Assembly (NCBI GenBank): GCA_049976445.1 | Contig: JBMFIF010000002.1 | Location: 5,115-69,114, forward strand | Source: Thermoprotei archaeon | GTDB lineage: Archaea; Thermoproteota; Thermoprotei; Gearchaeales; WAQG01 | DNA length: 64,000 nucleotides | Direction: 5' to 3' | Shown here: positions 4,566 to 60,341 of the stretch, piece after piece | Layout of the letters: each line of letters begins with the position of its first letter | Numbering within the stretch: position 1 is the first letter of the stretch | Program-made: the position numbers and the translations under genes | The notes under the pieces: generated by a model | What the model saw: only the letters and a program-made list of their open reading frames with translations | The model's database searches: none | Told to the model about the DNA's origin: nothing

Positions 4566-5957
4566 TTATCCTAACATAAGTTTAATGCTTCTGAGGAAAT
4601 CTGAAAAGCATTCGCGAGCAATGTTTGTTATTGATAAATCTTTTTTACTGATGTTTTTGGATAATCGTTCTATTCTATATGATACAGGTGGATGTGCATC
4701 AAACCATTTTAACCACGAATAGGCTCTAGTAGAGTAATCTTGTTCATACTTGAGTCTTCTATATCCTATCCTCTTTAATGCCTCTATGAGGGAATCAGCG
4801 CTATTTGTATAAAATGCTCCTACTAGGTCAGCTCTTTCCTCAAAAAATTTTGCGATGAAAAATACTGTTGTGAAGGAGAGCATTAGGTATAAGTAAGCTA
4901 ATATGATTGGTATGTTTAATGTTATGAGAATTCTTATGATGTATTCAATAGAGAATAATGTTGATACTATTATAGGATCGTAATTGACTATGTGACTAAA
5001 TTCGTGAGCAATGACAGCCTTGATCTCATTTTCTTTTAATGTCATCAGTAGACCAATCGTTATTGCTATGGTAGCATATCTTTTTGAGATACCTGTTGCT
5101 GCAGCGTTTGATATTGTTGTATTTATTAGAGTGATTTTAGGCATGTTGATACGAAAGTTTTTTCTTACTTCATCAACTAGTCCGTATACATCTATACTAG
5201 TTATCTTAACATTCAGAACGTTTATGCCATATTTGTTTAGTATGTTTGTTACTGTCAGGTTGTCTATGGAGTTGTTTATTTTTATTGTTTGTTCGTAGAT
5301 TTCTTTTTTAATTTGTGCTTTATTTTTAGATATTATGTTAATGCTTTTTATGTATTCATTTTCTGGTATCCAGCATTCGACTATGTATGCGTGTCGATTA
5401 TCTTGAGTGATTTTGTAGTCACTAATTTTTAGCATTATCTTATCTGAGAATAGCAAGATTACATATTGACTTAGAACTAATAATATTGGTAAATAATATC
5501 CTAAAAAGTAAAAGCCGATTGTAGCTATTAGAATTAATATACCAATCATAGCGATTGGGTTTCCTAAAAGAAGTTTTAGTATAATATTTTCTGTTCTCGA
5601 TTTTTCTGTTAAGTAATACTTATCTGTGAAAAGGAAAGCGACGGATTTTGCAGGTTGTTGTAATGTGAGAGCTGGATAGAGTAAGCCTTTTATTATCTCA
5701 TACGCCTTGTTAGCAATTTTAATATCCCCGTTTGACCAGATTACTACCATTGGTTCTTCTTCAGGGACTATTATTGCTCGTGCATTTATTTGTTGTAAGG
5801 ATATCTCTATTGCACTGTAATTCTGGAAAGTTGTTTCTGTAAAAGGTATGTTTTTTTCTTCAATTTTTTTCTTTACATCATTTTTGTTTAAGGATTCTGG
5901 TAATCGATATATGAATGGTATGTTGCTATCTTCTGGACTAGCCAGCATCAAAGTCAC
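4566..5957 (-). CDS. membrane Zn-metalloprotease, M48/HtpX-like (HEXXH)
   Basis: IAHEFSHIV (HExxH) embedded in a multi-TM region, with an N-terminal soluble domain; 463 aa. Confidence 0.55.
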   Translation of the reverse strand: MTLMLASPEDSNIPFIYRLPESLNKNDVKKKIEEKNIPFTETTFQNYSAIEISLQQINARAIIVPEEEPMVVIWSNGDIKIANKAYEIIKGLLYPALTLQQPAKSVAFLFTDKYYLTEKSRTENIILKLLLGNPIAMIGILILIATIGFYFLGYYLPILLVLSQYVILLFSDKIMLKISDYKITQDNRHAYIVECWIPENEYIKSINIISKNKAQIKKEIYEQTIKINNSIDNLTVTNILNKYGINVLNVKITSIDVYGLVDEVRKNFRINMPKITLINTTISNAAATGISKRYATIAITIGLLMTLKENEIKAVIAHEFSHIVNYDPIIVSTLFSIEYIIRILITLNIPIILAYLYLMLSFTTVFFIAKFFEERADLVGAFYTNSADSLIEALKRIGYRRLKYEQDYSTRAYSWLKWFDAHPPVSYRIERLSKNISKKDLSITNIARECFSDFLRSIKLMLG

Positions 5958-24498: not shown

Positions 24499-25308
24499 AT
24501 GGCACTAAAAGCATTAGGACCAAAAGTAATAATGGTTGTACCAGCAGGATGCACCTCAATAATACAAAGCCCATATCCATACGTTTCTATAGGAGTACCA
24601 CTATTAAACATCGCATTTGCTGCAGCAGCATCAACAGCATCAGGAATAGCAGCAGCACTAGAATACAAAGGGGATAAGGAAACCACAGTCCTAGTATGGG
24701 CAGGAGATGGAGGAACAGCAGACATAGGAATACAAGCGCTCAGCGGAGCAGCAGAAAGGGGCGATAATTTCATTTACATATGCTATGACAATGAAGCATA
24801 CATGAATACTGGAATACAAAGAAGCGGAGCAACACCATTCGGAGCATGGACAACAACCACATGGACTGGCAAAAAAGAATTCAAAAAAGACATCCCCATG
24901 ATTATGGCAGCACATAAAATACCTTACATTGCAACAGCATCAATAGCATACCCAATAGACTTCTACGATAAACTAAAGAAAGCCAAAACATACAAAGGAT
25001 TAAAATACTTACACATACACGCACCATGTCCACCAGGCTGGAAAATCCCAACAGACAAAACAGTAGAAATAGCAAAACTCGCAGTAGAAACAGGATTATG
25101 GGTACTCTACGAAATAGAAAACGGAGAGTTTAGACTCACAGGCCCTAGCAAAATACTCATAGACAAAAACAGAAGAAAATCAATAGAACAATACATCAAA
25201 ATACAAGGAAGATTCTCACACATGACAGACGAAGATATAAAAACACTCCAAGAATGGATAGATAAACAATGGGAACAATATACAGAAATGCTTAAACAAC
25301 GAAAATAA
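24499..25308 (+). CDS. porB: 2-oxoacid:ferredoxin oxidoreductase beta subunit (TPP-binding); true start probably upstream
   Basis: WAGDGGTADIG TPP motif. The conserved N-terminal LPGTAACPGCG motif lies in frame upstream of the first ATG (24409-24498) with no ATG/GTG/TTG available. Confidence 0.8.
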   Translation: MALKALGPKVIMVVPAGCTSIIQSPYPYVSIGVPLLNIAFAAAASTASGIAAALEYKGDKETTVLVWAGDGGTADIGIQALSGAAERGDNFIYICYDNEAYMNTGIQRSGATPFGAWTTTTWTGKKEFKKDIPMIMAAHKIPYIATASIAYPIDFYDKLKKAKTYKGLKYLHIHAPCPPGWKIPTDKTVEIAKLAVETGLWVLYEIENGEFRLTGPSKILIDKNRRKSIEQYIKIQGRFSHMTDEDIKTLQEWIDKQWEQYTEMLKQRK

Positions 25309-25571: not shown

Positions 25572-25952
25572 TTACATACTAAGACTTAATAATGTTAATT
25601 CATCAATTGTTTGATTAAACAATGCCTCATAAAGACCAGCGACCCTCTCTAAAATAATAATACCTTTAGTTAACACGTTATACCTAAACTTTACTTGCAA
25701 CTCATCTATTGGAACAACATCAAAAGGAATTCTTAAAAACTCTTCTAATCTAGCAGAAAGTAATGCATAATATTTAAACTCCTTATTCATAGAATAAATG
25801 GCAATATCAACATCCCTAAAACTTTTTAACTCCACAAAACTACCAAATATGATTGCTAGAAGCACATCTTTTTCACTCTCAAAAAACTCTCTAATGGAAT
25901 TCATGACAGTTTTCTTATCAATCCTATAATACTTAAATCTTGAAAGCATCAC
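25572..25952 (-). CDS. minimal nucleotidyltransferase (MNT), antitoxin-type
   Basis: GSFVELKSFRDVDIAIY (GS...DxD) pol-beta-type NTase motif; 126 aa; overlaps the HEPN gene by 20 bp. Confidence 0.7.
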   Translation of the reverse strand: MMLSRFKYYRIDKKTVMNSIREFFESEKDVLLAIIFGSFVELKSFRDVDIAIYSMNKEFKYYALLSARLEEFLRIPFDVVPIDELQVKFRYNVLTKGIIILERVAGLYEALFNQTIDELTLLSLSM

Positions 25953-26355
25953 TAATCCTCCTAATAAAATTCATAACATTAACAAAATCACTTCTAATAT
26001 TCTCATATATCTTCTCGTCAATAATAATCCAATATCTATGAACAAGTAAATTTCGCAACTTAAACATGCTCACAAAATCCTTATACTCTTCATCAATCAA
26101 AAGACCCTTATCTCTTAAAATATTTAAGGCATGAATTGAAGATTCAGGTTCAACATTATAAAATCTCCTAACAATGTGAAGAGCTAAAGCACTCAAAGCT
26201 TCAGCAATCACAATGATATGATATCTAACTGCATACCTCTCAGTAAGACTTATTTCTTCAAACGACTTACTAACATAATCACTAATAATATTTATAGATT
26301 CCATAATATCTTTAATAAGTTTCTTAATAAAATCTCTATTAACATCCACTCTCAA
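25933..26355 (-). CDS. HEPN domain protein, toxin-type
   Basis: RNLLVHRY (R-x4-HR HEPN motif); 140 aa; upstream partner of the MNT gene. Confidence 0.65.
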   Translation of the reverse strand: MRVDVNRDFIKKLIKDIMESINIISDYVSKSFEEISLTERYAVRYHIIVIAEALSALALHIVRRFYNVEPESSIHALNILRDKGLLIDEEYKDFVSMFKLRNLLVHRYWIIIDEKIYENIRSDFVNVMNFIRRISDAFKI

Positions 26356-26983: not shown

Positions 26984-28093
26984 CTAAATGAGTTCGTTAA
27001 TTTTAGTAGTAAGTCTTTTATATTCATCTTCAATTTTAAGTGCTAGTTCATCTGGGTTTAATTTCATCTTTATTTGTGCTATTAATGCTGTTCCGCCTGC
27101 TCCTACTCCTTCCTTCACATAACCATTTTCGTACGCTTTAAGTCCATAAAATTTTGATTTCGAAAAATTTAGTGTTGTGGCAATTATTGGTATTTTTTCG
27201 ATTTGGCTTACTAAACCTATAATATCGGAACTCCTGTCTTCTATAATCCATTTAGTGGTTCCAATTGCTACCTTGTCTAAATTAATATTCTTATGTTTCA
27301 ATAGTGCTAGCACTGAAGACATTTGAGTTCCACCGGCTAATAATACATGAGAGTTTATTTTTACTATGCCCTCAGTTAATCCTGCCATAGCTATCATCAC
27401 AGGATCACCAACTTTGCTCGCAGCAAGTAAAGGATTTTCTTTAGCTTGCTTGATACTTAGGTTAGCATTTTTTAAGCTCTCCTCAGCTATCCTTATTTTT
27501 AGATCATGCGGGTTATTAGCATCTGCACTACTTATTTTGTATCTAGCGTCATAACCAAGGGCTAAGAGAAAAGTTAGAGTGGTTGTAGTGCCACCTGGTA
27601 TACTTTCACCGATGAGAACAGTATCAGCTAATAATCCCAACTCTTTACCAAAAAGTTTAGCATTTTCATATATTGTGATCGCATCATCATATTTCATGGC
27701 GTTTCCAGTCCTTATATCATTACCGACAACACCACCTACATCTATGAAAGGAACTTTAGGTTTTACATAACAACCAGCGTTTACTACAAAGAAGGGTATG
27801 TTGAGTAGTTGTAATACTGTCCTAGTTATTATTGCGGGTGTTGGAATACCATCAGGCGTTGTTGGTATTACGTTGAAACTGATAACCTTACCATAAAAAA
27901 GATACTCTATATCACCAGTCGGAGTATATAGTGTTGCTTCGGGGTTAGCCCCAGCTATACTAAGACCAGGAATTTTTGATGTTAATGTTGATCCTATTAC
28001 ATAGACAGCTAGCAGGTTAGATTTTTCTATACGTTTAGTGAATTGTTCTCCTTTTTCAGGCATGTACGCATACATAATACTCATACAAACCAC
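26984..28093 (-). CDS. cobT: CobT-like nicotinate-nucleotide--dimethylbenzimidazole phosphoribosyltransferase (archaeal type)
   Basis: IGESIPGGTTT glycine-rich loop and overall archaeal CobT-like layout; 369 aa; cobamide gene neighbourhood. Confidence 0.6.
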   Translation of the reverse strand: MVCMSIMYAYMPEKGEQFTKRIEKSNLLAVYVIGSTLTSKIPGLSIAGANPEATLYTPTGDIEYLFYGKVISFNVIPTTPDGIPTPAIITRTVLQLLNIPFFVVNAGCYVKPKVPFIDVGGVVGNDIRTGNAMKYDDAITIYENAKLFGKELGLLADTVLIGESIPGGTTTTLTFLLALGYDARYKISSADANNPHDLKIRIAEESLKNANLSIKQAKENPLLAASKVGDPVMIAMAGLTEGIVKINSHVLLAGGTQMSSVLALLKHKNINLDKVAIGTTKWIIEDRSSDIIGLVSQIEKIPIIATTLNFSKSKFYGLKAYENGYVKEGVGAGGTALIAQIKMKLNPDELALKIEDEYKRLTTKINELI

Positions 28094-29035
28094 CTAAACA
28101 GGATATGCTCCACATGTTCTACAATATTTTGAATCCGCTGGCACTCCAGCACCACAAAATGAGCATCTTTTTTCATTAGATTTGGGTTTAGGTATATTAC
28201 CGATAATCTCTTTGAACAATTTATAATAATATGCCTGTTCATAATCTCTTAGAATTATTTCTTTGCCCAATTTTTCGAACTCTTCTTTATTAATCATTTT
28301 ACTAATTATCTGTGTGAGGGTTGTGGAACCACTGCCAATTTCGATGGGATCTTTAGTTCTCCATACAATTTCGTCAGGTAGTAATCCTTCTATTGCTTTT
28401 CTGACAATCCATTTTCCATAAATACTGTTTCTTTCTTCATGAACCTTAAATTCAGGAGGAATGCTCAATGCAAAATCCACGAATTCACGATCAATATAAG
28501 GTTGTTCAATCTTTAACCCTAGGCTTTCACCTAGAGGAACAGCTGAAAAGAACCAACGTTCTGATAATTCTTTAATATATTTTTCAAGTTCTTGTGGTTT
28601 CATTTTATACATGTATGAGTAGCCGGCAAACAATTCATCACCACCATCACCTGTTACTATTGATTTGAGACCTAGCTGTTTCGCATAGGATAGTGCTATA
28701 TAAATTGTAATACTATTACGTATTTCCATCGGATCAAAAGTCCTAAGCACGTGAATGACATTTCTAACAGCCTCAAGGGCTTCATCCAATTTGAATATTT
28801 TTATCTTATGATCAAACCCTAAAAATTCTGTTACACGCTTAGAATAATAAAGATCAGGCCCAGGATTTTGTTCAAAAATTGCAGTAATAGCAACCGGTTT
28901 TAGGTTTTTCATTAAAAAGGCTAAAACACTGGTGTCAAGACCCCCAGAAAGAAGTATTGCTTCTCCTTGATGTCTTTTGACTGAAGCTTCCAGCTTATTA
29001 AGAAGTTCTTTTGTTAAAATATTCACTGTAATCAT
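28094..29035 (-). CDS. asparagine-synthase-related PP-loop ATP pyrophosphatase with C-terminal zinc ribbon
   Basis: LSGGLDTS PP-loop (SGGxDS); C-terminal CSFCG...CRTCG; 313 aa; immediately upstream of cobT with a 1-bp gap. Confidence 0.55.
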   Translation of the reverse strand: MITVNILTKELLNKLEASVKRHQGEAILLSGGLDTSVLAFLMKNLKPVAITAIFEQNPGPDLYYSKRVTEFLGFDHKIKIFKLDEALEAVRNVIHVLRTFDPMEIRNSITIYIALSYAKQLGLKSIVTGDGGDELFAGYSYMYKMKPQELEKYIKELSERWFFSAVPLGESLGLKIEQPYIDREFVDFALSIPPEFKVHEERNSIYGKWIVRKAIEGLLPDEIVWRTKDPIEIGSGSTTLTQIISKMINKEEFEKLGKEIILRDYEQAYYYKLFKEIIGNIPKPKSNEKRCSFCGAGVPADSKYCRTCGAYPV

Positions 29036-29037
29036 AT

Positions 29038-29054
29038 GGTTGGATTATCCAATC
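29038..29054. promoter_or_regulatory. operator-like repeat copy 1 (GGTTGGATTATCCAATC)
   Basis: Starts 3 bp from the ATG of the minus-strand PP-loop gene; near-palindromic TGGATTATCCA core. Confidence 0.4.
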
Positions 29055-29124
29055 AAGTATTTAAACTTTTTGTATCCTCATGAAGATTAAACAATATGTC
29101 AGAAACGTTAGCTTTAAATTCTTT

Positions 29125-29139
29125 GGTTGGATTATCCAG
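29125..29139. promoter_or_regulatory. operator-like repeat copy 2 (GGTTGGATTATCCAG)
   Basis: Overlaps the annotated TTG start of the btuF-like gene; 87 bp from copy 1 with TATA-like boxes between. Confidence 0.4.
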
Positions 29140-30383
29140 ACTTGGTGAATAACTTGAGTGATAGGAATACTCGTTACTTATTAAGTCTAATAATTATAAT
29201 AGTGATAGTACTGGGAGTTACTATACCTCTTTATATGGAAATTAATTCTTTAAGAGATGAAATTTCTAGATTACGTAATGATATATCAGCACTTAGTTTA
29301 AGTTCTAAGCAACTTACCTCACAGTTTAATAGTAGTCTCACACAATTAAATGCAGCTTATAAGAGCCTTGAAGATAGGTATAATAAATTATTTCAACAGT
29401 ATTCATCATTGTCTGAAAGTATTAAGTATCCTTTTACAATTACTGATGCTCTTGGAAGAACTGTAACGATAGTTTCAAGGCCAGTTCGAGTTATAAGTAC
29501 GGCACCTAGTGTGACAGAAATGCTTTTTGCTATAAATGCAGAAAAACTTATTGTAGGTGTTGATAAGTATTCAGATTATCCGCCTACAGTAAAAGATTTA
29601 GTTAAAAATAGTACAATTAAGCTGGTTGGTGGTTTTTCGACTGTTGATGTGGAGGCTATTGTAGCACTAAAGCCTGATATTGTATTTATGACACCGGGCG
29701 TGCAAACACCTTTCGTATATAGGTTAGCAGAACTTGGACTAACCGTCGTCGCTTTAAAGGAAGATAGTATATCGGATGTGTTTGATTCGATAATGCTCGT
29801 AGGGAGAATTCTTGATAAGATTGATGGGGCATTAAACGTTGTCGCATCTATGAAGTCTAAAATCACTTATGCGTTCTCAAAGGTTGAGAATTATATTAAA
29901 TCTGTTAATATTACAAGGGTTAAAGTGTATTGGGAAGTATGGCCTGAACCAATATATACCGTTGGTTCACAAAATTTTATAAATGATATAATTACACTAG
30001 CAGGAGGGGTTAATATTTTTGGTGATATAAAATCAGGCTATCCAGTCGTAAGTTCTGAGGAAGTTATAAACAAAACTCCTGATGTTATAATAACAACTGA
30101 TCATGGTGGGGTTTATGGATCGCCACAGGATGTATTAAATATGATCAGGAATAGAACTGGATGGAATGTAATACCAGCTATAAAAAGTAATAGAGTTTAT
30201 GTGTTAACGGGCCAGTTTGGGTCTATGTTTATAAGGCCTGGTCCAAGAGTTGCAGATGCAATTCTTCAACTTGCCGTAATATTATATCCTGAGGCATTTG
30301 GTATGAGTAAAATCATGATACCGAACATAATAAGCACATCGTTTAACGTTACAACATATATTAGTTTGTTAATTGTTTCATAA
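29127..30383 (+). CDS. btuF: ABC transporter substrate-binding protein, BtuF/FhuD-like (cobalamin/siderophore class)
   Basis: Signal-anchor TM, then class III SBP pattern (RVISTAPSVTEMLFAI...GVDKYSDYP); start ambiguous (TTG 29127 or GTG 29145). Confidence 0.65.
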   Translation: MDYPDLVNNLSDRNTRYLLSLIIIIVIVLGVTIPLYMEINSLRDEISRLRNDISALSLSSKQLTSQFNSSLTQLNAAYKSLEDRYNKLFQQYSSLSESIKYPFTITDALGRTVTIVSRPVRVISTAPSVTEMLFAINAEKLIVGVDKYSDYPPTVKDLVKNSTIKLVGGFSTVDVEAIVALKPDIVFMTPGVQTPFVYRLAELGLTVVALKEDSISDVFDSIMLVGRILDKIDGALNVVASMKSKITYAFSKVENYIKSVNITRVKVYWEVWPEPIYTVGSQNFINDIITLAGGVNIFGDIKSGYPVVSSEEVINKTPDVIITTDHGGVYGSPQDVLNMIRNRTGWNVIPAIKSNRVYVLTGQFGSMFIRPGPRVADAILQLAVILYPEAFGMSKIMIPNIISTSFNVTTYISLLIVS

Positions 30384-31410
30384 TACAATGAGCAGTAATT
30401 ATATACAAAGGAGATATTCCCGCCTTATTTTTTCTGTTATTGTTCTAATCATGTTAGTAGGAGTTTTAAGTATATTATCCATTAGTGTTGGTTCTGCGTT
30501 TATAAATCTGCCGGAATCTTTAAAAGCTTTGGTTGATTCTGATAACGTTGATGTATATACAAGAATTATAATATGGGAGATTAGAGTTCCTAGGACATTA
30601 AGCGCTATTTTTATAGGAATGTTGATGGCTTTAGCTGGGCTTTTTATGCAGACTGTTACTCTGAATCCTCTTGCTGATCCTTATTTAACAGGTATGGCTT
30701 CTGGTGCACTGTTAGGTGTTAGTATAACTATTGTGCTTTCACCTTTAATCGTTAGTCCTTATGTTATAGTTATCTCAGCGTTCTTTGGAGCCTTGTGCGC
30801 CATGATATTAACACTTCTAATTGCAAGTAAATTTCGCTTAGATCCAATAGGACTCATACTGGGAGGTGTTGCAGTCTCTATGATTTTTTACTCATTTTCT
30901 GCGATACTTCAGTTTATTGGAGGTGAAAAGATGGTTATGATAATTATATGGAGTCTTGGAAGCTTGAGTACTGCATCATGGTCAAGAACATGGTTTACTG
31001 GCATTACTGCAATAATTCTTATACCCCTTTCTATAATTATGTACAAATCGTTGAATGCTTTATTACTTGGTGATGAGAATGCACAAAGTATTGGTGTAAG
31101 TCCGAAGTTAACACGATCATTTTCCTTGCTAATATCCTCAATTGCCACGGCAATCTCAGTGTCAATGTTTGGTGTGATAGGCTTTGTTGGATTAGTAGCA
31201 CCTCATTTAGCACGTCTCGCATTAAGGAGCGGTGATCATTTAATAGTCATACCAGTCACATGTCTTGTTGGATCCGCTATCATGCTTTTAAGTGATGTGA
31301 TAGCTAGAATAATAGGTTCTCCTGGAGAATTTCCGTTAACTCCTATAATGAGTTTAATTGGTGCTCCGCTACTTATTTATTTAATGAGTAGGAGGTTTAA
31401 AAATGGTTAA
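30373..31410 (+). CDS. btuC: ABC permease BtuC/FecCD family
   Basis: 345 aa, about 9-10 TM helices, FecCD-type conserved glycine-rich segments. Confidence 0.8.
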   Translation: MFHNTMSSNYIQRRYSRLIFSVIVLIMLVGVLSILSISVGSAFINLPESLKALVDSDNVDVYTRIIIWEIRVPRTLSAIFIGMLMALAGLFMQTVTLNPLADPYLTGMASGALLGVSITIVLSPLIVSPYVIVISAFFGALCAMILTLLIASKFRLDPIGLILGGVAVSMIFYSFSAILQFIGGEKMVMIIIWSLGSLSTASWSRTWFTGITAIILIPLSIIMYKSLNALLLGDENAQSIGVSPKLTRSFSLLISSIATAISVSMFGVIGFVGLVAPHLARLALRSGDHLIVIPVTCLVGSAIMLLSDVIARIIGSPGEFPLTPIMSLIGAPLLIYLMSRRFKNG

Positions 31411-32179
31411 ACTAATCATAGATAATCTTTCTGTTAATTATGGTTCAATAAAAGCATTAGAAGATATTAGTATAAAACTTGACAAAGGCATGATGGTATC
31501 AATAATAGGACCTAACGGTTCTGGAAAGACAACACTTCTCAGATCTATAGCAAGAATAGTAAAACCAGTAAAAGGTGTAATCTATATTGATGGAAAAAAT
31601 ACTAACGAACTATCATTAAAAGATCTAGCTCATCATGTATCATACACATCTACATTGAAAGTAAAAGAGGGTTTTGAACTCACAGTGGGCGATATAGTTT
31701 TTATGGGTAGATATCCAAGAACTGGATTTATGATGAGTCATACTGATGAAAGAATTGTGAACGATGTATTAAATAAGTTTCGCATTACTCATTTAATGAA
31801 TAGAAAAATAGATGAGCTTAGCGATGGTGAACGGCAAAAAACCTTTTTAGCAAGAGCCTTAGCTCAAGAATCAGAAATAATACTTGTAGATGAACCATTA
31901 GCGCATCTTGATCTAAAAGCACAACTTGAAGTCTTAAAAATACTTAAAAATGAAGCAAACGATGGAAAGCTTGTAATAATGACCTCACACGAGATAGACT
32001 TACCGATTAAATACAGTGATGTATTAATAGTAATGAAAAAAGGAGAAATATTAGCAGCAGGAAAACCTAATGAAATACTAACAGAAAAAATAATAGAAAA
32101 TGCTTATGGTGTTAAATGTCGTATAATCAAAGATAAAGAATATTCACTTATAGTACTTCTTGACACACTCAGTGATTAG
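31403..32179 (+). CDS. btuD: ABC ATPase BtuD/FepC-like
   Basis: Walker A GPNGSGKTT, signature LSDGERQ, Walker B ILVDEP; 258 aa. Confidence 0.8.
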   Translation: MVKLIIDNLSVNYGSIKALEDISIKLDKGMMVSIIGPNGSGKTTLLRSIARIVKPVKGVIYIDGKNTNELSLKDLAHHVSYTSTLKVKEGFELTVGDIVFMGRYPRTGFMMSHTDERIVNDVLNKFRITHLMNRKIDELSDGERQKTFLARALAQESEIILVDEPLAHLDLKAQLEVLKILKNEANDGKLVIMTSHEIDLPIKYSDVLIVMKKGEILAAGKPNEILTEKIIENAYGVKCRIIKDKEYSLIVLLDTLSD

Positions 32180-32181
32180 TA

Positions 32182-33282
32182 ATGAAGGAATTAAAACAAC
32201 CAGTACACGGTGGTAGAGTATGGGATGCAGCAGAAAAACTCAACATAAACGTTGAAAAGATTATAGATTTTAGTACAAATACAAATCCATTAGGACCTCC
32301 AAAACAATTAATAACAACATTAATAAAAAATATTAACACTGTTGCTTATTATCCAGATCCTGACTATAGAACATTAAGGATGGAATTGGCAAGGTTTTAT
32401 AACATTAATGAAGAGAATATTATAGTTGGTAATGGTGCAACTGAACTTATACATCTATTTGCACAAACATTCATCTCAGAAAATGACAGAGTAATAATAC
32501 CAATACCCACGTTTGAAGAATACCAATATGCATCACAGAAAGTTAGCGCAAGAATTATTTATATAAAGTCAAAAAACAATATGCACATAAACATAGACAA
32601 AATAATATCAAAAATGAACAATACAAAGGTCATATTTGTATGTAATCCAAATAACCCAACAGGAATATTAGAAAAACAAGAAGATATACTCAATCTAATA
32701 AAAGAGGCTAATAAGAGAAACGTACTAGTTTTTCTTGATGAAAGCTTTATGGATCTAGTAGTTACAAAAAAGCCGTACACGTTAATAAGATCAGTAAACA
32801 TGTTTGATAATCTTTTTATAATAAGATCACTAACAAAAATCTTCAGCATACCCGGATTAAGGATAGGTTTTGGTGTATCTTCAAAGTACTTAATAAAAGA
32901 ACTTAATAAACATAAAATACCATGGAATGTCTCAACACTTATTGAAAAAACTATTCCAGAAGCACTAAAATATGCAAGACAATATCTAAAAACATCAAGA
33001 AAAATAATCAAACAAGAAAGAAACTATATGATAAGTGAACTATCGAAAATTGATGGTATTAAAGTAATAAGCGGTGATGCTAATTTTCTCTTCATAGATA
33101 TAAGTGAAACTGGACTCACATCATCAGAATTAGCAGATCAATTAATAAAACATCGTATACTAATACGAGATTGTAGCACTTTTACAGGACTGAACAACTC
33201 GTACATAAGAATAGCAATAAAGAAACACCGAGAAAACATACTACTAATAAATGCTCTGAAAACAATAGTGATAAGAAAATGA
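32182..33282 (+). CDS. cobD: L-threonine-O-3-phosphate decarboxylase CobD-like (class II aminotransferase fold)
   Basis: HisC-like PLP enzyme with Lys in IRSLTKIF; 366 aa; cobamide cluster context. Confidence 0.6.
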   Translation: MKELKQPVHGGRVWDAAEKLNINVEKIIDFSTNTNPLGPPKQLITTLIKNINTVAYYPDPDYRTLRMELARFYNINEENIIVGNGATELIHLFAQTFISENDRVIIPIPTFEEYQYASQKVSARIIYIKSKNNMHINIDKIISKMNNTKVIFVCNPNNPTGILEKQEDILNLIKEANKRNVLVFLDESFMDLVVTKKPYTLIRSVNMFDNLFIIRSLTKIFSIPGLRIGFGVSSKYLIKELNKHKIPWNVSTLIEKTIPEALKYARQYLKTSRKIIKQERNYMISELSKIDGIKVISGDANFLFIDISETGLTSSELADQLIKHRILIRDCSTFTGLNNSYIRIAIKKHRENILLINALKTIVIRK

Positions 33283-34235
33283 ACTCCTTCCACACAAGTA
33301 TAATAATTTTAGTATTAGCAGTACTCATAGATATATTATTTGGAGAACCTCCACTCAAAGTTCATCCAGTAGTTTGGGTTGGTAGATTAATTAAATATTT
33401 GGAACGTTACTGTCATGGAGGAAGCACTCAACTAGAGAAAATTAAAGGTACGATGATGGCTATATCAGTAATTATAATATCCATCACAATAACATACATC
33501 GCTTTAAAAATAGTACAGTCTTATCTCGGTTTATATGGATACATAATAATAGCATCTATAATATTCAAAACAACTTTTTCAATACGATCCATGAAAGATC
33601 ACATAAAACCAATAGCTATCTCGTACGAGAAAAATAATAAAGAAAAGGCCAAAGTATTATTGTCACGAGTCGTAAGAAGAAATCCCTGGCAACTCACTGA
33701 TGAACAAATAATCTCAGCTGCAATAGAGACGACAGCAGAAGGCATAGTAGATGGTATAACATCAGCATTGTTCTATTACAGTATACTTGGAATACCAGGT
33801 GCAATAATGCAACGAGTTATAAACACATTGGACTCAATGGTTGGGTATAAAGATGAATATTATAAGAATGTAGGATGGTTCTCAGCAAAATTAGATACAA
33901 TAATAAACTTTATACCAGCTCGTCTCACAGCAATTACTATAGTACTGGCATCATTAATTTTAAAAAAAGATTATAAATTAAGCTTTAAAATAGCATTAAC
34001 AGACCATAAAAATACTGAAAGTCTTAATGCGGGATGGCCAATGTCAGCAATGGCAGGCGCTCTAAGAATACAACTAGAAAAACCCGGACATTACAAACTT
34101 GGGATTCCAATGCAAAAACTAAAGCCAGAACTCATATACGATGCATTAAACATAATGTATACATCAACAACACTTTTCATAATAACAATAATAATTCCTA
34201 TACTTATTCTCTTTAATATCTACCTATTTTTATAA
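33279..34235 (+). CDS. cbiB: adenosylcobinamide-phosphate synthase CbiB
   Basis: LDSMVGYK...GWFSAKLDTIINFIPARLTA matches the CbiB/CobD-membrane family signature; 318 aa, multi-TM. Confidence 0.7.
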   Translation: MNSFHTSIIILVLAVLIDILFGEPPLKVHPVVWVGRLIKYLERYCHGGSTQLEKIKGTMMAISVIIISITITYIALKIVQSYLGLYGYIIIASIIFKTTFSIRSMKDHIKPIAISYEKNNKEKAKVLLSRVVRRNPWQLTDEQIISAAIETTAEGIVDGITSALFYYSILGIPGAIMQRVINTLDSMVGYKDEYYKNVGWFSAKLDTIINFIPARLTAITIVLASLILKKDYKLSFKIALTDHKNTESLNAGWPMSAMAGALRIQLEKPGHYKLGIPMQKLKPELIYDALNIMYTSTTLFIITIIIPILILFNIYLFL

Positions 34236-35298: not shown

Positions 35299-36411
35299 AT
35301 GAATAACACTCAAAACGTAAAAATCTATTTTAAAGATAATACACTCATCATCGAATCAGCATCAGAAATGGAAGTACTGAGTAGTGCTGTATTCAATGGT
35401 GGAAGACAAAAAGCACAATATATAATAAACTATAAGGTTTCTAAAACCTTTGATGATCCAAAACCAGCACTATACCTAAAAAATGTAATAGAAAAACTAG
35501 GATTACCTCACGATTCAACAATAGGATTAATGACAGCTGCTGATGTTCACAATGCTTCAATAATTAATGAAGGACCAGTTACAGCAATAATTACTGCAGG
35601 CCTTTCAAATACAGCAACCGCCGGTGATGATATAGCAGTACAAAACATCGGAACGATTAATATGATTATTATAGTAAATGGATTACTAAACGAAAACGCT
35701 TTTGTAGATGCAATAATAACTGCCACAGAAGCAAAAACAGTAGCACTTGATCAATTAGATATTATAAGTAGAGTATCAAGAAAAAGAGCAACAGGAACAA
35801 CAACTGATTCTATAGTAATAGCATGCACACAACAAGGTGAAAGATATGAATATGCAGGCACAGCGACAAAAATAGGTAATATGATAGCTAAAAGTGTCAT
35901 AAAAGGTGTTTTAGAAGCCATAAAACTCCAGGAAAATATAACATCATCTAGACCAATATTAAAAAGATTAGAAGAAAGAGGAATTACACTAAAGGATCTC
36001 GTAGAAACGGGTATGGAACTTTATATACATCACCCAAGCATGGGAACAATAGAGAACGCAAGAAAAACATTAGAAGAAATATTGATAGAATCAATGAATG
36101 ATATAAATGTTGCATCATTAATTATTGCCGGAATAAGGATAGAGGAGGAAGGAAGAAAGGGTTTAATACCTGGTCTTACAAGAGAAGAATTTGAAAAAGA
36201 TCCTGTAAATCTAGTGGCTGATGAGTTAATAGGAATGGCTATAGCTGATTACATAGCAGGTTCAAGAGGTATTTTTGAATATGTCAGGTTTGATAGAATA
36301 AAACCAGGCATTATCAGAAATCTAGGGCCCTTCATGGATGACATAATCGGAGCATTAATAGGTGGAGCGTCATCACTCATGTATACAAAATTACTTAAAA
36401 AACAGAAGTGA
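35299..36411 (+). CDS. cbiZ: CbiZ-like adenosylcobinamide amidohydrolase domain protein (extended)
   Basis: N-terminal region resembles the CbiZ family; 370 aa, longer than canonical CbiZ; directly upstream of cobS/cobY with overlapping stops and starts. Confidence 0.4.
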   Translation: MNNTQNVKIYFKDNTLIIESASEMEVLSSAVFNGGRQKAQYIINYKVSKTFDDPKPALYLKNVIEKLGLPHDSTIGLMTAADVHNASIINEGPVTAIITAGLSNTATAGDDIAVQNIGTINMIIIVNGLLNENAFVDAIITATEAKTVALDQLDIISRVSRKRATGTTTDSIVIACTQQGERYEYAGTATKIGNMIAKSVIKGVLEAIKLQENITSSRPILKRLEERGITLKDLVETGMELYIHHPSMGTIENARKTLEEILIESMNDINVASLIIAGIRIEEEGRKGLIPGLTREEFEKDPVNLVADELIGMAIADYIAGSRGIFEYVRFDRIKPGIIRNLGPFMDDIIGALIGGASSLMYTKLLKKQK

Positions 36412-37151
36412 TCAAGTTGATAAAACAATTAAAAGCCCTCTTATCATTTCTTACAATAATACCAGTAAAAGAGGAACACGATCTAAAAACAATTGCAGAA
36501 GGTATACACCTCTTTCCATTGATAGGATTTTTCACCGGAATCCTAACAGGATTTATAGCATACCTTATCTCAAGAGTATACCTAAGTCTTTTAACGGGAA
36601 TAATAGCAGTATCATTCCTGGAATTTATAACAGGACTTCACCATTTTGACGCATTGTTAGATTTTGGTGATGGTATTATGGCTAAAACAACACCAGAAAA
36701 GAAAATAGAAATTATGCATGATAAACAAACAGGAAGCGGCGGATTCTGGTTAGGTATTACAATAATTGGAATAAAAATATTTTCAATATCACAATTACAT
36801 GGATTACAACTCTTTACAGCAATAATTCTTTCAGAAATCTCCGCAAAACTTTCAATGGTAATAGGAATGTGGCTAGGCAACCCAGCTTACCCCTCTAGTA
36901 CAGCAGTACCGTTCATAGAAGAAGCACATAAAAACCCTAAAAAACCATTAATAGCTCTTATATTCTCATTATTCATAGCATTACTCTTCATGACAGAAGG
37001 AATATTAATGATAATTACAAGCATAATAGTGGCAGTAATCATTGAACATCTATCACAAAAACATTTTAAAGGTATAACTGGCGATGTATTGGGATCCATG
37101 GATGAAATAACATCAGCTCTCTCATTATTAGTATTAGTGAGCATAATATGA
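36408..37151 (+). CDS. cobS: adenosylcobinamide-GDP ribazoletransferase (cobalamin synthase) CobS
   Basis: 247-aa polytopic membrane protein of CobS size and topology, in an operon with cobY. Confidence 0.6.
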   Translation: MIKLIKQLKALLSFLTIIPVKEEHDLKTIAEGIHLFPLIGFFTGILTGFIAYLISRVYLSLLTGIIAVSFLEFITGLHHFDALLDFGDGIMAKTTPEKKIEIMHDKQTGSGGFWLGITIIGIKIFSISQLHGLQLFTAIILSEISAKLSMVIGMWLGNPAYPSSTAVPFIEEAHKNPKKPLIALIFSLFIALLFMTEGILMIITSIIVAVIIEHLSQKHFKGITGDVLGSMDEITSALSLLVLVSII

Positions 37152-37768
37152 TAAAAATTAAAGCTCTAATCATGGCAGGAGGAAAAGCAACCAGAATGAA
37201 TAACATAGAAAAACCCCTCATAAAAATATGCGGAACCACAATGATAGAAAGAATACTCAATGCACTAAAGAACACTAAGTGCATAGAAGATGTATATATA
37301 ACAACAAGTAAAAATACGAAAAACACAGAAATCCTACTTAAAACCTTAGGATATAAAACAATAACAACTTCAGGAGAAGATTATGTAGAAGACTTAAAAA
37401 ACACAATTATAAAACTAAACATAAAAGATCCCATATTAGTATTACCATCCGATCTACCATTAATAACACCAAATACAATAGAACAATTAATCAATATTTA
37501 CATACAAAACAACTCTCCACCAACAACGACGTTTTACATACCATTGCAACTACTAAAAACAAAAATACGAACAAACTACATAGAACAAATAAATAATATA
37601 AAAGTAATACCATCTGGCATTAGTATAATAAAAGGATCATACATTACGCAAAATGTAATACCGCAAATAAACATAATAGTCGAAAACACAGAATTAAGCG
37701 TTAACGTGAATACGTTATTAGATATAAAAATTGCACAATCAATTTTATGCAAAAGAAATAATAAGTAG
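37148..37768 (+). CDS. cobY: adenosylcobinamide-phosphate guanylyltransferase CobY (archaeal NTP-transferase type)
   Basis: MAGGKATRM nucleotidyltransferase G-loop; 206 aa, as in archaeal CobY. Confidence 0.6.
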   Translation: MIKIKALIMAGGKATRMNNIEKPLIKICGTTMIERILNALKNTKCIEDVYITTSKNTKNTEILLKTLGYKTITTSGEDYVEDLKNTIIKLNIKDPILVLPSDLPLITPNTIEQLINIYIQNNSPPTTTFYIPLQLLKTKIRTNYIEQINNIKVIPSGISIIKGSYITQNVIPQINIIVENTELSVNVNTLLDIKIAQSILCKRNNK

Positions 37769-56711: not shown

Positions 56712-57284
56712 TTATTGTACTTTAAATAAAACATCTATGATCTTTTGTATATATTCATAAGGTTGCTCTACGCGTTCAGCAAAATCCATAGAAATAACAT
56801 AATAAAATAAATTTCCAAGGAATATTTTTAAATAAAACTCATCGATCATTTTTCCAGTTAGGTTCTGTATTTTTTCTTTTAATTTGGTATAGTTTGAGTG
56901 ATGAATTTTTTTGAAGGTTTCTTTAATTTCACTGTATCTATTTGCTATTCCTATGGAATAAAGGAAAAGTTTTCTTTCAATGGGGTCATTGTATTTTAGA
57001 ATATATTTTAATGCTAGATCATTAAGCATTTCTTTAACATCATTATAATGTTTTTCTATTACATTGTTTAATACTTCAACTGGTGAAACACTGATAGCAA
57101 TCTCTTTGATTAATTGCTCTTTGCTTGTAAAATATGTATAAAATGTGCCTTTGGAGAGTTTAACTTTTTCCATTATTTCATCTACTGTAGTCAAGTCAAA
57201 ACCTTTTTCAGCGAATATTTGACGTGCAGCCATGATGATTAATTTCTTTTTTTCGTTATTGCTATTCCTCATAATCCTACACAT
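56712..57284 (-). CDS. TetR/AcrR-family transcriptional regulator
   Basis: N-terminal HTH (IMAARQIFAEKGFDLTTVDEIMEKVKLSKGTFYTYF); 190 aa; divergent from the radical-SAM genes. Confidence 0.75.
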   Translation of the reverse strand: MCRIMRNSNNEKKKLIIMAARQIFAEKGFDLTTVDEIMEKVKLSKGTFYTYFTSKEQLIKEIAISVSPVEVLNNVIEKHYNDVKEMLNDLALKYILKYNDPIERKLFLYSIGIANRYSEIKETFKKIHHSNYTKLKEKIQNLTGKMIDEFYLKIFLGNLFYYVISMDFAERVEQPYEYIQKIIDVLFKVQ

Positions 57285-57372
57285 AATTTAGTTCTGCATA
57301 GTTATATACTTTTTGGCTAACTAGTCAGTCAAAAATATAAGTATCTTTAAAGAAATATATAAGTGAGAAATT

Positions 57373-58896
57373 ATGGGTAATACTAATGGTTCGAATTCAA
57401 TGGTTAATGCTATAGAATCATTTAAGGGTATTGTAGATAATCCATTGAGTAAGTATTTATTAAGATATTTAACTGGTTATTGTGAGAAGGATCATGAGAA
57501 TCGGTTAGAGGTTGCTCTTGAACTTTACTTAGGAATTAGGAAAGATGCTTGTTTTTCTTGTCGATCAGCTTCTAAGGTTGTTAGTTACATTGTTAAAAAA
57601 GGTGCAAAGAGTTTTGGAGTTAGTGAGGATCAATTAAAAAGTACTATGAAAGATTCGTATTGGAGAAGAGGTCTTATTAGTGTACTTAAAGGTATAGCAT
57701 TTTTTGGTGTTCGCAAGCCGTTTGTACCAGGGGCTCCGTTTCAAGTCGTATGGAATATAACCAAAGCGTGTAATATGAACTGTTTGCATTGTTATGAAAG
57801 CGCTGGCATAAAGGGTAATGATGAACTCACTTCTGAACAAATTCATCAGGGAATAGATATACTTGCTGATGCTGGCGTAACTATCTTAGCGTTTTCTGGA
57901 GGTGAGCCAACAATACATCCTAATATAGTAGAATTCATTAGTCATGCTCACAATAGGGGAATGTACGTAGCTATTGCTACTAATGGTTATGTTTTAGCCA
58001 ATAAGTATGTTATAAGAAAATTAAAGAGTGCAGGTTTAGGATATGTACAGATTAGTCTAGATGGTCTGAATCCAAACACTCATGACTCATTTAGAAGGGT
58101 GAAGGGTGCTTGGGAACATGCTGTTCGTGCAATAAAAAATAGTATTGAGGAAGGATTATTTGTTGAAGTAGCTACTACTGTTACAAAATACAATATTAAT
58201 GAAATACCTGAAATGATTAAGTTTGTCAGAAATCTTAAAGCTAATTGGTTTATGTTATATAATTTTGTCCCTACAGGGCGTGGGAAAGAGATTATAGAAA
58301 GTGATCTTTCACCGAGAGAACGTTTTGATCTTTTAAAATTAGCCTATTCAGAAACAGGTGATGGTGGTTTGCAAGTGCTTTCCACAGCTCCTCAGTATGC
58401 TGCTGTTGCGCAAATGTTTAATAAGAATGGTAAGAATATAATACCAACTCATTTCTATAATCCTGAATATAATGATCCAAAAATACGTCAGTTAGCAGAA
58501 TTTATTGGTGGTTGTGGTGCTGGGAGGTTTTATATATCGATCGAGCCAAATGGAGACATATATCCATGCGTATTCTTTCCACATGTAGATGAAGTAAAAA
58601 TCGGTAATTTGTTAAAAGATGATTTCGAAAAACTTTGGAGGGAACATGAGTTATTATGGAAATTACGAAATAAGGATATTTTAGAAGGATTCTGTGGTAA
58701 ATGTGCGTTTAGATATACATGTGGGGGGTGTCGAGCTCGTGCATATAATTATTTTGGCAACGTATTAGCACCTGACCCAGGATGCATTTTTAATTCTAAA
58801 GAATGGAATAAATTAAGGTCTGAATTGCTTATTAAATATCATGCAGAGGAAACACCAGCAGGTAATATTCTCATAAGAATAAATGATACACCATGA
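57373..58896 (+). CDS. radical SAM enzyme with C-terminal SPASM domain and a Cys-bearing N-terminal extension (candidate tetraether-synthase / GDGT-MAS-like)
   Basis: CNMNCLHCY (Cx3Cx2C) at about residue 133; C-terminal CGAG...PC...CGKC...CGGC SPASM cysteines; N-terminal region with GYC/DAC/FSC; 507 aa. Confidence 0.75.
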
Positions 58897-60341
58897 CGCG
58901 CATTATTCTCATAAATCCTATAGATAGAACTCAGATCACTAATAGGCTTGGACTAAAAGCACCACCACTAAATTTAATGTACCTTGCGTCTGCGCTTGAA
59001 AAAGCTGGATTCTATGTTAAAATTATAGATGCTAATCTTTATAATATACTACCGCATCAAATAGCAAGAGTAATAAAAGGGTTTAGACCTGATATTATTG
59101 GTTTAACAGCTGCAACCGCTACCATAAAAACTGCTTTACATTATGTATCAGAAATCAAAAAGGCTATATCAAACGTATTTACCATAATAGGTGGACCTCA
59201 TGTTACTTTTCTTCCAACAGAAACATTGAATATGTCAAAAGATTTAGATGCGGTAGTTATAGGTGAAGGTGAAGAAACCATCGTCAAGATAGCAGAATCT
59301 TATGAAAAAAGTAATCCGGAATGGCTTTCTAACATAAGAGGAGTGGCTTATAGGATAAAAAATCATGATTCAAGTAAAATAAAAATCACACCCCCAAGGC
59401 CTTTTATTAAAAACTTAGATTTAATACCATTCCCGGCTCGTCATTTAGTACCGTTTAACGAATATAAGCTGTACAACAAGGATACACCCATAGGTAGTAT
59501 GATTACAAGTAGGGGTTGCGTTTTTGCATGTAATTATTGTTCATCCTCGCACCTGATGGGAAGAATGTTTCGAGCACGCAGTTCAAAAAATGTAGTTGAT
59601 GAAATCGAAGAATTAGTATACAAATACAATGTTGATACAATCGAATTTATTGATGATATTTTCACTCTAAACAAAAAACGTGCATTAGAGATTGCTAAGG
59701 AAATACGCTCTAGAAAAATTGATATAAACTTTGTTGCATCATCTAGAGTTGATACTATAAACCGTGAATTATTAACAGAATTAAAAAAAGCTGGGCTTTC
59801 AACAATGTATTATGGTGTAGAATCAGGTTCAGAACGCGTTTTAAAATTAATGAATAAAAGAATCACGTTATCACAAGCGGAAAAAGCCATAAATGAAACT
59901 AAAAACATTGGTGTTAGTACACTAGCATCATTCATACTAGGTTATCCAGGTGAAACTCTTAATGAGATGTGGGCCACTATAAAATTCTCTATAAAACTTA
60001 ACCCAGATTATGCACAATTCTCCATACTCACACCATATCCTGGGACACCAATATACTATGAACTTAAACAAAAAGGATTAATCGCTACAGAAGATTGGGA
60101 TAAATACACAGTATTAGACCCAGTTATAGAATATGAAAAATTAGGATTAAGCAAACACATAGTCTCAAAAATGCTCAGAGAAGCATATTTAAGATTTTAT
60201 CTAAGACCAAGATACTTATTAAAACGAATAACAATGTTAAAGGCTCTAATATATACAATGATCAATACTTATATCTTACCTATTTTTCAACACAAAGACT
60301 CATTAGGTTGGTATAAGGACCTAAGCACTCATCACGATTGA
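58893..60341 (+). CDS. B12-binding-domain radical SAM enzyme (class B)
   Basis: N-terminal Rossmann-like cobalamin-binding region; CVFACNYC (Cx3Cx2C); 482 aa; start overlaps the upstream radical-SAM stop by 4 bp. Confidence 0.75.

Follow-up and report, generated by a model that had tools for sequence, protein, structure and literature searches.

Conserved 17-bp palindromes at the divergent promoters of an archaeal cobamide salvage locus are predicted operators for a winged-helix repressor, with the DUF4443 family as the candidate regulator

A 64,000-nucleotide stretch of contig JBMFIF010000002.1 from a Thermoprotei archaeon (hereafter the window; G+C ~33%) carries a cobamide salvage locus built of two divergent operons, whose shared intergenic region holds two copies of a palindromic, operator-like element that is the subject of this analysis. 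The first gene of the minus-strand operon codes for a 313-amino acid (aa) asparagine-synthase-like PP-loop protein with a C-terminal zinc ribbon (hereafter asnS-like; 28094-29035; Pfam Asn_synthase, E = 1.6e-40) and is followed by that for an archaeal-type CobT, the nicotinate-mononucleotide-dependent phosphoribosyltransferase (26984-28093; NCBIfam TIGR00303, 354 bits against a cutoff of 240). The plus-strand operon begins with the gene for a BtuF-like substrate-binding protein (29145-30383; Pfam Peripla_BP_2; start revised to the GTG at 29145, see below), which is followed by genes for a BtuC-like permease of the FecCD family and a BtuD-like ATP-binding cassette (ABC) ATPase (30373-32179), and then for a CobD-like class I/II aminotransferase and CbiB, a member of the adenosylcobinamide-phosphate synthase family (32182-34235). 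Further along the plus strand, beyond an aldo-keto reductase gene, lie cbiZ (fused to a PgpA-like domain), cobS and a gene for a cobY-like nucleotidyltransferase (35299-37768). This last set completes the pathway, and the locus as a whole is complete for the salvage of cobinamide and cobamides. No palindrome of its own was found for the cbiZ/cobS/cobY-like set in a scan of the window; of the two copies described here, one fronts the minus-strand asnS-like/cobT operon and the other the plus-strand btuFCD-cobD-cbiB operon.

An earlier note on this DNA had described the element as a direct repeat, GGTTGGATTATCCA, with a nearly palindromic core, occurring twice, at 29038-29051 and 29125-29138, 87 bp apart. 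Exactly these two copies are found in the window, at this distance, and the identity between them reaches one further base (T) in the 5' direction, giving 15 shared nucleotides. The description as a repeat stands but can be refined, as the elements are not merely direct repeats: both copies are parts of a 17-bp palindrome with the consensus GGWTGGATWATCCAWCC, which takes the form GGTTGGATWATCCAACC in orthologues. Likewise, the core was rightly seen to be palindromic, but the qualification "nearly" falls away, since TGGATTATCCA is a perfect 5-1-5 palindrome about a central T. The first site, operator 1 (29038-29054; GGTTGGATTATCCAATC), matches the consensus at 16 of 17 positions, and the second, operator 2 (29125-29141; GGTTGGATTATCCAGAC), at 15 of 17, both of its deviating bases being in the half closest to the start codon. 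When the window was scanned with GGTTGGATWATCCAACC, allowing up to four mismatches, the hits were these two sites, with one and two mismatches respectively, and one at 25036 with four. No further 17-mer with three or fewer mismatches occurs in the 64 kb, and the core TGGATNATCCA has no further exact match in the window.

The two TATA-like boxes that the same note had placed between the copies are present, at 29065-29058 on the minus strand (TTTAAATA; asnS-like/cobT promoter) and at 29113-29120 on the plus strand (TTTAAATT; btuF promoter); both were read from the sequence and are conserved in the alignment of related lineages. A scan of the region for bacterial-type promoters and terminators was uninformative for an archaeon. 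At each promoter, the palindrome is separated by 3-4 nt from the end of the TATA box and by 2-3 nt from the start codon, operator 1 starting 2 nt past the asnS-like ATG (29035-29033, minus strand). The centre of the minus-strand TATA box lies 26-27 nt from the A of this ATG (29035), and that of the plus-strand box lies 26-28 nt from the TTG-GTG at 29142-29147, spacings that match the canonical distance between an archaeal TATA box and the transcription start. Hence, leaderless or almost leaderless mRNAs are predicted from both promoters, with the start codons very probably coinciding with the transcription starts, and that of btuF is predicted at ~29142-29145. If transcription starts 26-27 nt from the TATA centre, the palindromes would span ~-19 to -3, or, taken individually, ~-19 to -3 for operator 1 and ~-18 to -2 for operator 2. 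Such a position upstream of the predicted transcribed region argues against an RNA-level role for the element as well as against activation. The layout would fit the occlusion type proposed earlier, with a site between TATA box and start codon at both of the divergent promoters.

The same geometry bears on the annotation of btuF. Within operator 2 lies the TTG (29127) taken as the btuF start (418 aa) by the public gene calls and by a mechanical finder of open reading frames (ORFs), an overlap that had been recognized before. This TTG is not the start of btuF, because only the GTG at 29145, yielding a product of 412 aa, is a start codon common to all five lineages compared (the window's and the four described below), in agreement with the start previously favoured for this gene. 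The three bases upstream of this GTG are ATG in two lineages and AGG or AAG in two.

The contigs used for this comparison encode asnS-like proteins which are 90%, 75%, 75% and 73% identical to that of the window. The motif is found at both promoters in all four of these related lineages, in keeping with the expectation that it should recur at orthologous promoters, and the 73-75% lineages carry the perfect 17-bp palindrome GGTTGGATWATCCAACC. The block consisting of the TATA box, palindrome and start codon is invariant in the five lineages, operator 1 being invariant and operator 2 kept in all of them, while the remaining spacer is unalignable, an observation that excludes chance. The distance from palindrome to palindrome is not conserved (87, 84 and ~75 bp). 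Further, two lineages have an EamA transporter gene inserted between the operons, and here each operon still has a copy, the two lying more than 1 kb from each other. With spacing that varies and copies that persist after separation of the genes, each promoter is served by an operator of its own. A requirement for the two operators to loop cooperatively was considered and rejected on account of the same variation in spacing and survival of the distant copies.

Beyond these relatives, an exact scan for the perfect palindrome in one genome per species of GTDB r232 (596 Gb) yielded 114 loci, of which 58 are archaeal and 56 bacterial. The bacterial figure is close to the ~70 occurrences that a 17-mer would show by chance in 596 Gb; archaea make up an estimated few percent of the GTDB collection, and the palindrome is strongly over-represented in their genomes. 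The archaeal loci come mostly from Bathyarchaeia, with some from Nitrososphaeria and Nitrosopumilales, Methanomethylicia-related genomes and others. The context of the sites differs sharply between the two domains: only 5 of 58 archaeal sites are situated deep inside a long ORF as opposed to 30 of 57 bacterial ones, and 42 of 58 archaeal sites abut a TATA-like box (match of at least 6/8) as compared with 6 of 57 in bacteria.

The genes downstream of the archaeal palindromes fall into a limited set of types. In 22 loci, the palindrome is followed by a gene for a BtuF-like protein and then by FecCD and ABC ATPase genes, and in 9-11 loci by a gene for an energy-coupling factor (ECF) S-component and then one for a DUF4430 protein. 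The Pfam match to DUF4430, the transcobalamin-like C-terminal domain, is slightly below threshold in these ECF-S-linked proteins, and a comparison of the DUF4430 protein with solved structures gave no match. Other first genes behind archaeal sites code for a CobD-like aminotransferase, a BtuF-like protein followed by CobN, or a NicO nickel/cobalt transporter; additionally, genes for CbiZ, CobS and CobY-like proteins share clusters with the sites. These gene families indicate a regulon for the uptake and salvage of cobamides that is marked by the motif in several archaeal classes. The enrichment upstream of B12-related genes that had been proposed as a check is therefore strong in other archaea, at genes of B12 transport and salvage. 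As had been anticipated for an archaeon, B12 riboswitches are lacking: a search with Rfam at gathering thresholds found no cobalamin riboswitch (RF00174) or other known RNA in the window, and among 18 related archaeal motif loci no riboswitch was found, the sole Rfam match being a tRNA.

Certain further types of genes were also observed directly behind perfect palindromes. Membrane-anchored, pyrroloquinoline quinone (PQQ)-like beta-propellers of ~400-440 aa are encoded by the first gene in 11 Bathyarchaeia loci (which include L039, L045, L053, L059, L064, L066, L092, L113 and L121). A bacterial analogue for corrinoid capture is the BtuG propeller, and by analogy to it the archaeal propellers could be extracellular corrinoid-capture proteins. 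In independent lineages, PurS-PurL(-PurM-like) operons and a TFB gene with one for an adenosine-specific kinase behind it stand in the same position (L112, L117, L092; L075, L109).

Clustering of all ORFs from the motif loci points to a single recurrent regulator family. In six motif-selected loci, a protein of ~210 aa is encoded either in an operon with the site or divergently from it, and no other recurrent regulator family was found in this clustering. The protein combines an N-terminal winged helix (Pfam CggR_N / PH0730-like_N) with a C-terminal DUF4443 domain (PF14544). The association was also seen in an independent sample of 80 metagenome loci (568 kb), selected only for encoding a DUF4443 homologue: the palindrome, with up to two mismatches, occurs in 38 of the 80, as against a mean of 0.07 sites in shuffles. 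All 38 sites are 5' of the regulator gene, with 5' and 3' flanks being equally represented in the sample, and for those loci having more than 2.5 kb of upstream sequence a site is present in 24 of 39. The sites are located either at the head of the operon containing the regulator gene or at -54 to -94 nt of the gene itself, the latter position implying direct autoregulation.

The DUF4443 loci display several gene orders. In some, the site is followed in a single direction by the ECF-S, DUF4430 and regulator genes; in others, ECF-S and DUF4430 run in one direction from the site and the regulator in the other. A third order has cobD and cbiB on one side of the site and btuFCD, then the regulator, on the other, and a fourth has cbiZ, cobS and cobY on one side with, further along the other side, the asnS-like gene and then the regulator. 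The unbiased consensus drawn from these loci is GG[T/A]TGGAT[W]ATCCA[A/T]CC, which the two sites of the window match at 16/17 and 15/17 positions. An additional DUF4443 gene (P0290), chosen only for its AT-rich composition and coming from an organism of 26% G+C, is again associated with the palindrome: it is divergent from an operon for DUF4430-like, ECF-S and PduO-type adenosyltransferase proteins, and the 52-bp spacer contains GGATGGATAAACCATCC. As the most AT-rich DUF4443 representative, P0290 was considered as the regulator of the window's lineage and dismissed, since it belongs to a different organism with its 26% GC.

With regard to structure, the DUF4443 protein is homologous over its full length (E = 7.7e-10) to Pyrococcus horikoshii PH0730, whose solved structure (PDB 2P8T, "hypothetical protein") came from structural genomics and carries no functional assignment. 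The family comprises ~875 clusters at 50% identity (E <= 1e-10), and there is no NCBIfam model naming it. Forty diverse members have no invariant Cys or His and share the signature G-[IL]-E-Q-R-D. A B12-binding fold was sought in DUF4443 and discarded, as the fold search gave only 2P8T, generic winged helix-turn-helix (wHTH) proteins and a weak match to a domain of aspartyl-tRNA synthetase (AspRS). The domain also sets the candidate regulator apart from CggR/SorC, in which the effector domain is the sugar-phosphate-binding SorC domain instead of DUF4443. In the literature searched, PH0730 occurs only as the label of a wHTH family, in an inventory of the transcription factors of P. furiosus (PMC6316755).

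Homologues of the asnS-like PP-loop/zinc-ribbon protein recur in archaeal cobamide-salvage clusters (L184, L187, L194, L202, L215), and in several lineages the gene for the DUF4443 regulator is immediately downstream of the asnS-like homologue. In a sediment archaeon whose asnS-like protein is 59% identical to that of the window, the GGTTGGAT palindrome is absent and the spacer between the diverging cobD and asnS-like genes holds a different perfect 18-bp palindrome, GTAGGATTTAAATCCTAC (L218, ~4995-5012), which may be an alternative operator. Loci in which the cbiZ-cobS-cobY genes are divergently arranged (L159, L165, L184, L187-L189, L194, L196, L198, L202, L205) feature one palindrome between TATA-like boxes on both sides (GTTATAT ... 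AATATA), by virtue of which a single dimer could shut two face-to-face promoters. A contig labelled as Candidatus Methylomirabilota bacterium (L071) shows the arrangement of the archaeal loci, comprising the palindrome together with cobS and genes for a CobY-like and a DUF4443 protein, and may be a mis-binned archaeal contig or reflect horizontal transfer.

Elsewhere in the window, downstream of the cobT operon, the minus strand codes for a toxin-antitoxin pair of an MNT-like nucleotidyltransferase and a HepT-like RNase (25572-26355). At a greater distance, a TetR-family gene (56712-57284) is divergent from genes for a radical S-adenosylmethionine (SAM)/SPASM protein and a B12-binding radical-SAM protein, the entire cassette spanning 56712-60341. 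The TetR gene was examined as a regulator close to the locus and set aside, as it belongs to this radical-SAM cassette, which is without a palindrome.

The features of the locus and the distribution of the motif are probably, and with good confidence, to be interpreted in terms of operators for a dimeric winged-helix (DUF4443) repressor of both operons, with a cobamide or other corrinoid as co-repressor. The earlier note's reading of the repeats as a candidate cobamide-responsive operator is thereby supported. Under this interpretation, a repressor dimer would bind each palindrome, and its presence at ~-19 to -3 would let TBP bind but exclude RNA polymerase. One of the sites would govern asnS-like/cobT and the other btuFCD-cobD-cbiB, bringing cobamide uptake, nucleotide-loop assembly and cobinamide salvage together under one control. 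The regulator would most likely be a wHTH + DUF4443 protein encoded outside the window, which would probably repress its own gene too. The co-repressor would most likely be a cobamide or corrinoid, such that uptake and salvage are turned off when the cofactor is plentiful; this is the most economical reading because it is analogous to the logic of the riboswitch.

The components of this interpretation differ in strength. It is highly probable that the sites function as repressor operators for both cobamide operons, although both the binding and the action by repression rather than activation are inferred at either site. It is very likely that wHTH-DUF4443 proteins are, in general, the cognate family for the motif, and the identity of the motif makes it likely that such a protein is also the cognate regulator in this organism. 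Regulon content, on which the assignment of the signal is based, somewhat favours a cobamide or corrinoid, while other possible effectors are a metal or an inducer, for example an incomplete corrinoid.

Several observations count against the above interpretation. No DUF4443 gene was detected in the 64-kb window (tblastn, hmmsearch --max), nor in the sequence flanking the locus, at most 10 kb on each side, in the three closest related lineages. The two positions at which the btuF operator deviates from the consensus almost never vary elsewhere. The B12-radical-SAM cassette of the window, upstream of which the earlier note had suggested looking for the motif, was found to lack it in the window scan. 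More distant asnS-like orthologues, at 52-59% identity (from a Methanomethylicia-like lineage and a sediment archaeon), have promoters without the palindrome, indicating that the system is not universal and that its conservation is lineage-restricted. Moreover, the PurS/PurL, TFB and PQQ-like propeller genes behind some sites are not obviously B12-related. Lastly, as DUF4443 has neither a known B12-binding fold nor an invariant His or Cys, the ligand is a guess from the content of the regulon.

The lack of a DUF4443 homologue in the window and in the examined flanks of its relatives would also be accounted for if the operator and the repression mechanism were the same but the protein bound in this lineage belonged to another regulator family. 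One relative indeed has a small TrmB/ArnR1-like wHTH gene beyond cobY (L212:888-1178), but it has no counterpart in the window. Even where it is visible, the DUF4443 regulator is often several kb away from some sites or unlinked to them, and the motif in the window fits the DUF4443-linked consensus as closely as stated above; replacement by a different family is thus considered unlikely. Another alternative is a metal-responsive repressor (of cobalt, nickel or iron; DtxR/MDR1- or NikR-like) that controls a metal-chelate ABC transporter and does not sense cobamides. Transporters of the FecCD/Peripla_BP_2 type carry siderophores and haem as well, some of the sites have NicO, CobN and a cation-efflux gene in their vicinity, and the wHTH of one DUF4443 protein shows a faint MntR-like match (E = 0.006). 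However, most of the regulated genes are cobamide-specific, namely cobT, cobD, cbiB, cbiZ, cobS, cobY and those for the PduO adenosyltransferase and ECF-S with DUF4430. The binding protein of the window, too, is closer to solved BtuF proteins: several vitamin B12-binding BtuF structures are among its best matches (E 7e-24 to 1e-17) and outscore the listed enterochelin and haem binders, even though the single best structure match carries an iron-binding annotation. Nor do the DUF4443 proteins have an invariant Cys or His. The DtxR/IdeR box is a 19-bp palindrome, TWAGGTWAGSCTWACCTWA, which the half-site GGWTGGAT with its 1-nt centre does not fit, and no recurrent DtxR-family gene was seen beside the motif in the clustering of the motif loci. 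A metal-responsive repressor is accordingly regarded as quite improbable.

A last set of alternatives would deny the palindrome a role as a repressor site altogether, treating it as an activator site, an RNA-level hairpin in the 5' untranslated region, or a chance or mobile repeat devoid of regulatory function. It was, after all, first noticed merely as a short direct repeat, and if transcribed it could fold as a hairpin. The TATA geometry speaks otherwise, with both palindromes upstream of the predicted transcription starts and start codons 2-3 nt on, which leaves no leader. Known archaeal activators bind upstream of the TFB recognition element (BRE)/TATA, and not downstream as would be the case here, and conservation at promoters, and only there, across archaeal classes excludes chance or a mobile element. 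Taken together, these alternatives have a very low probability.

The repressor-operator interpretation finds precedents in several systems. Rodionov, Vitreschak, Mironov and Gelfand (J Biol Chem) reportedly predicted, in 2003, a "CBL-box" as the signal of a hypothetical archaeal B12 regulator. As with the motif described here, this is a conserved DNA signal upstream of archaeal genes for B12 biosynthesis and transport, which was proposed as a replacement for the riboswitch; no protein assigned to the CBL-box was found, whereas the present motif is statistically linked to DUF4443/PH0730. The CBL-box may be the same element as GGWTGGATWATCCAWCC. If its consensus is GGWTGGATWATCCAWCC, then the cis-element is not new but the assignment of the regulator apparently is. 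Full-text searches of the literature returned no paper dealing with DUF4443/PF14544, the "CBL-box" or a B12 regulator of archaea, and the hypothesized connection to DUF4443, which is specific and testable, is apparently unpublished.

For other vitamins, archaea are known to use transcription factors where bacteria use riboswitches, as with ThiR for thiamine genes. The equivalent for riboflavin genes is RbkR (PMC5397151). Both resemble the proposed system in being vitamin-specific repressors with palindromic operators at biosynthesis and transport promoters, frequent autoregulation and a discovery through comparative genomics. They differ from it in vitamin, protein family and motif, and also in that both derive from enzymes of their own pathway, unlike DUF4443, which is without a known enzymatic relative. 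The bacterial cobalamin riboswitch (RF00174) follows the same regulon logic, standing upstream of btuFCD and of genes for cobamide biosynthesis and salvage, but is a cis-acting RNA, in contrast to the window element, a DNA palindrome that precedes the predicted start of transcription. In terms of mechanism, the archaeal repressors MDR1, Phr and LrpA bind between the TATA box and the transcription start and block recruitment of RNA polymerase. At promoters repressed by TrmB/TrmBL1, the operator is likewise between the TATA box and the transcription start (PMC4158304). This shared operator position predicts exclusion of RNA polymerase after binding of TBP and TFB at the present promoters as well, though the families, motifs and effectors (metals, heat, sugars) are different. 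By its sequence features, the window element is thus a predicted archaeal vitamin-regulon operator acting by steric repression, which is a kind already known.

To our knowledge, archaea are without B12 riboswitches, and their control of cobamide uptake and salvage is essentially uncharted. In this regard, the window provides a clean example of a conserved operator at a complete salvage locus, and its analysis has additionally corrected the annotation of the btuF start codon. More generally, the motif can be used to locate B12-related genes in the genomes of uncultured Bathyarchaeia and Nitrososphaeria, and brings forward candidate new players in the form of the asnS-like PP-loop protein, the DUF4430 proteins and the membrane-anchored beta-propellers. 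It also leads to one uncharacterised protein family for which a crystal structure already exists. As a tentative extension, which could well prove wrong, the wHTH + DUF4443 (PH0730/2P8T) family may be the "hypothetical B12 regulator" reportedly postulated in 2003, directly sensing cobamides via a ligand-binding fold not yet known for B12. As a protein counterpart of the bacterial B12 riboswitch, it would act across the Thermoproteota (Bathyarchaeia, Nitrososphaeria and the present Thermoprotei lineage), and also in one or more unclassified metagenomic lineages of very high AT content.

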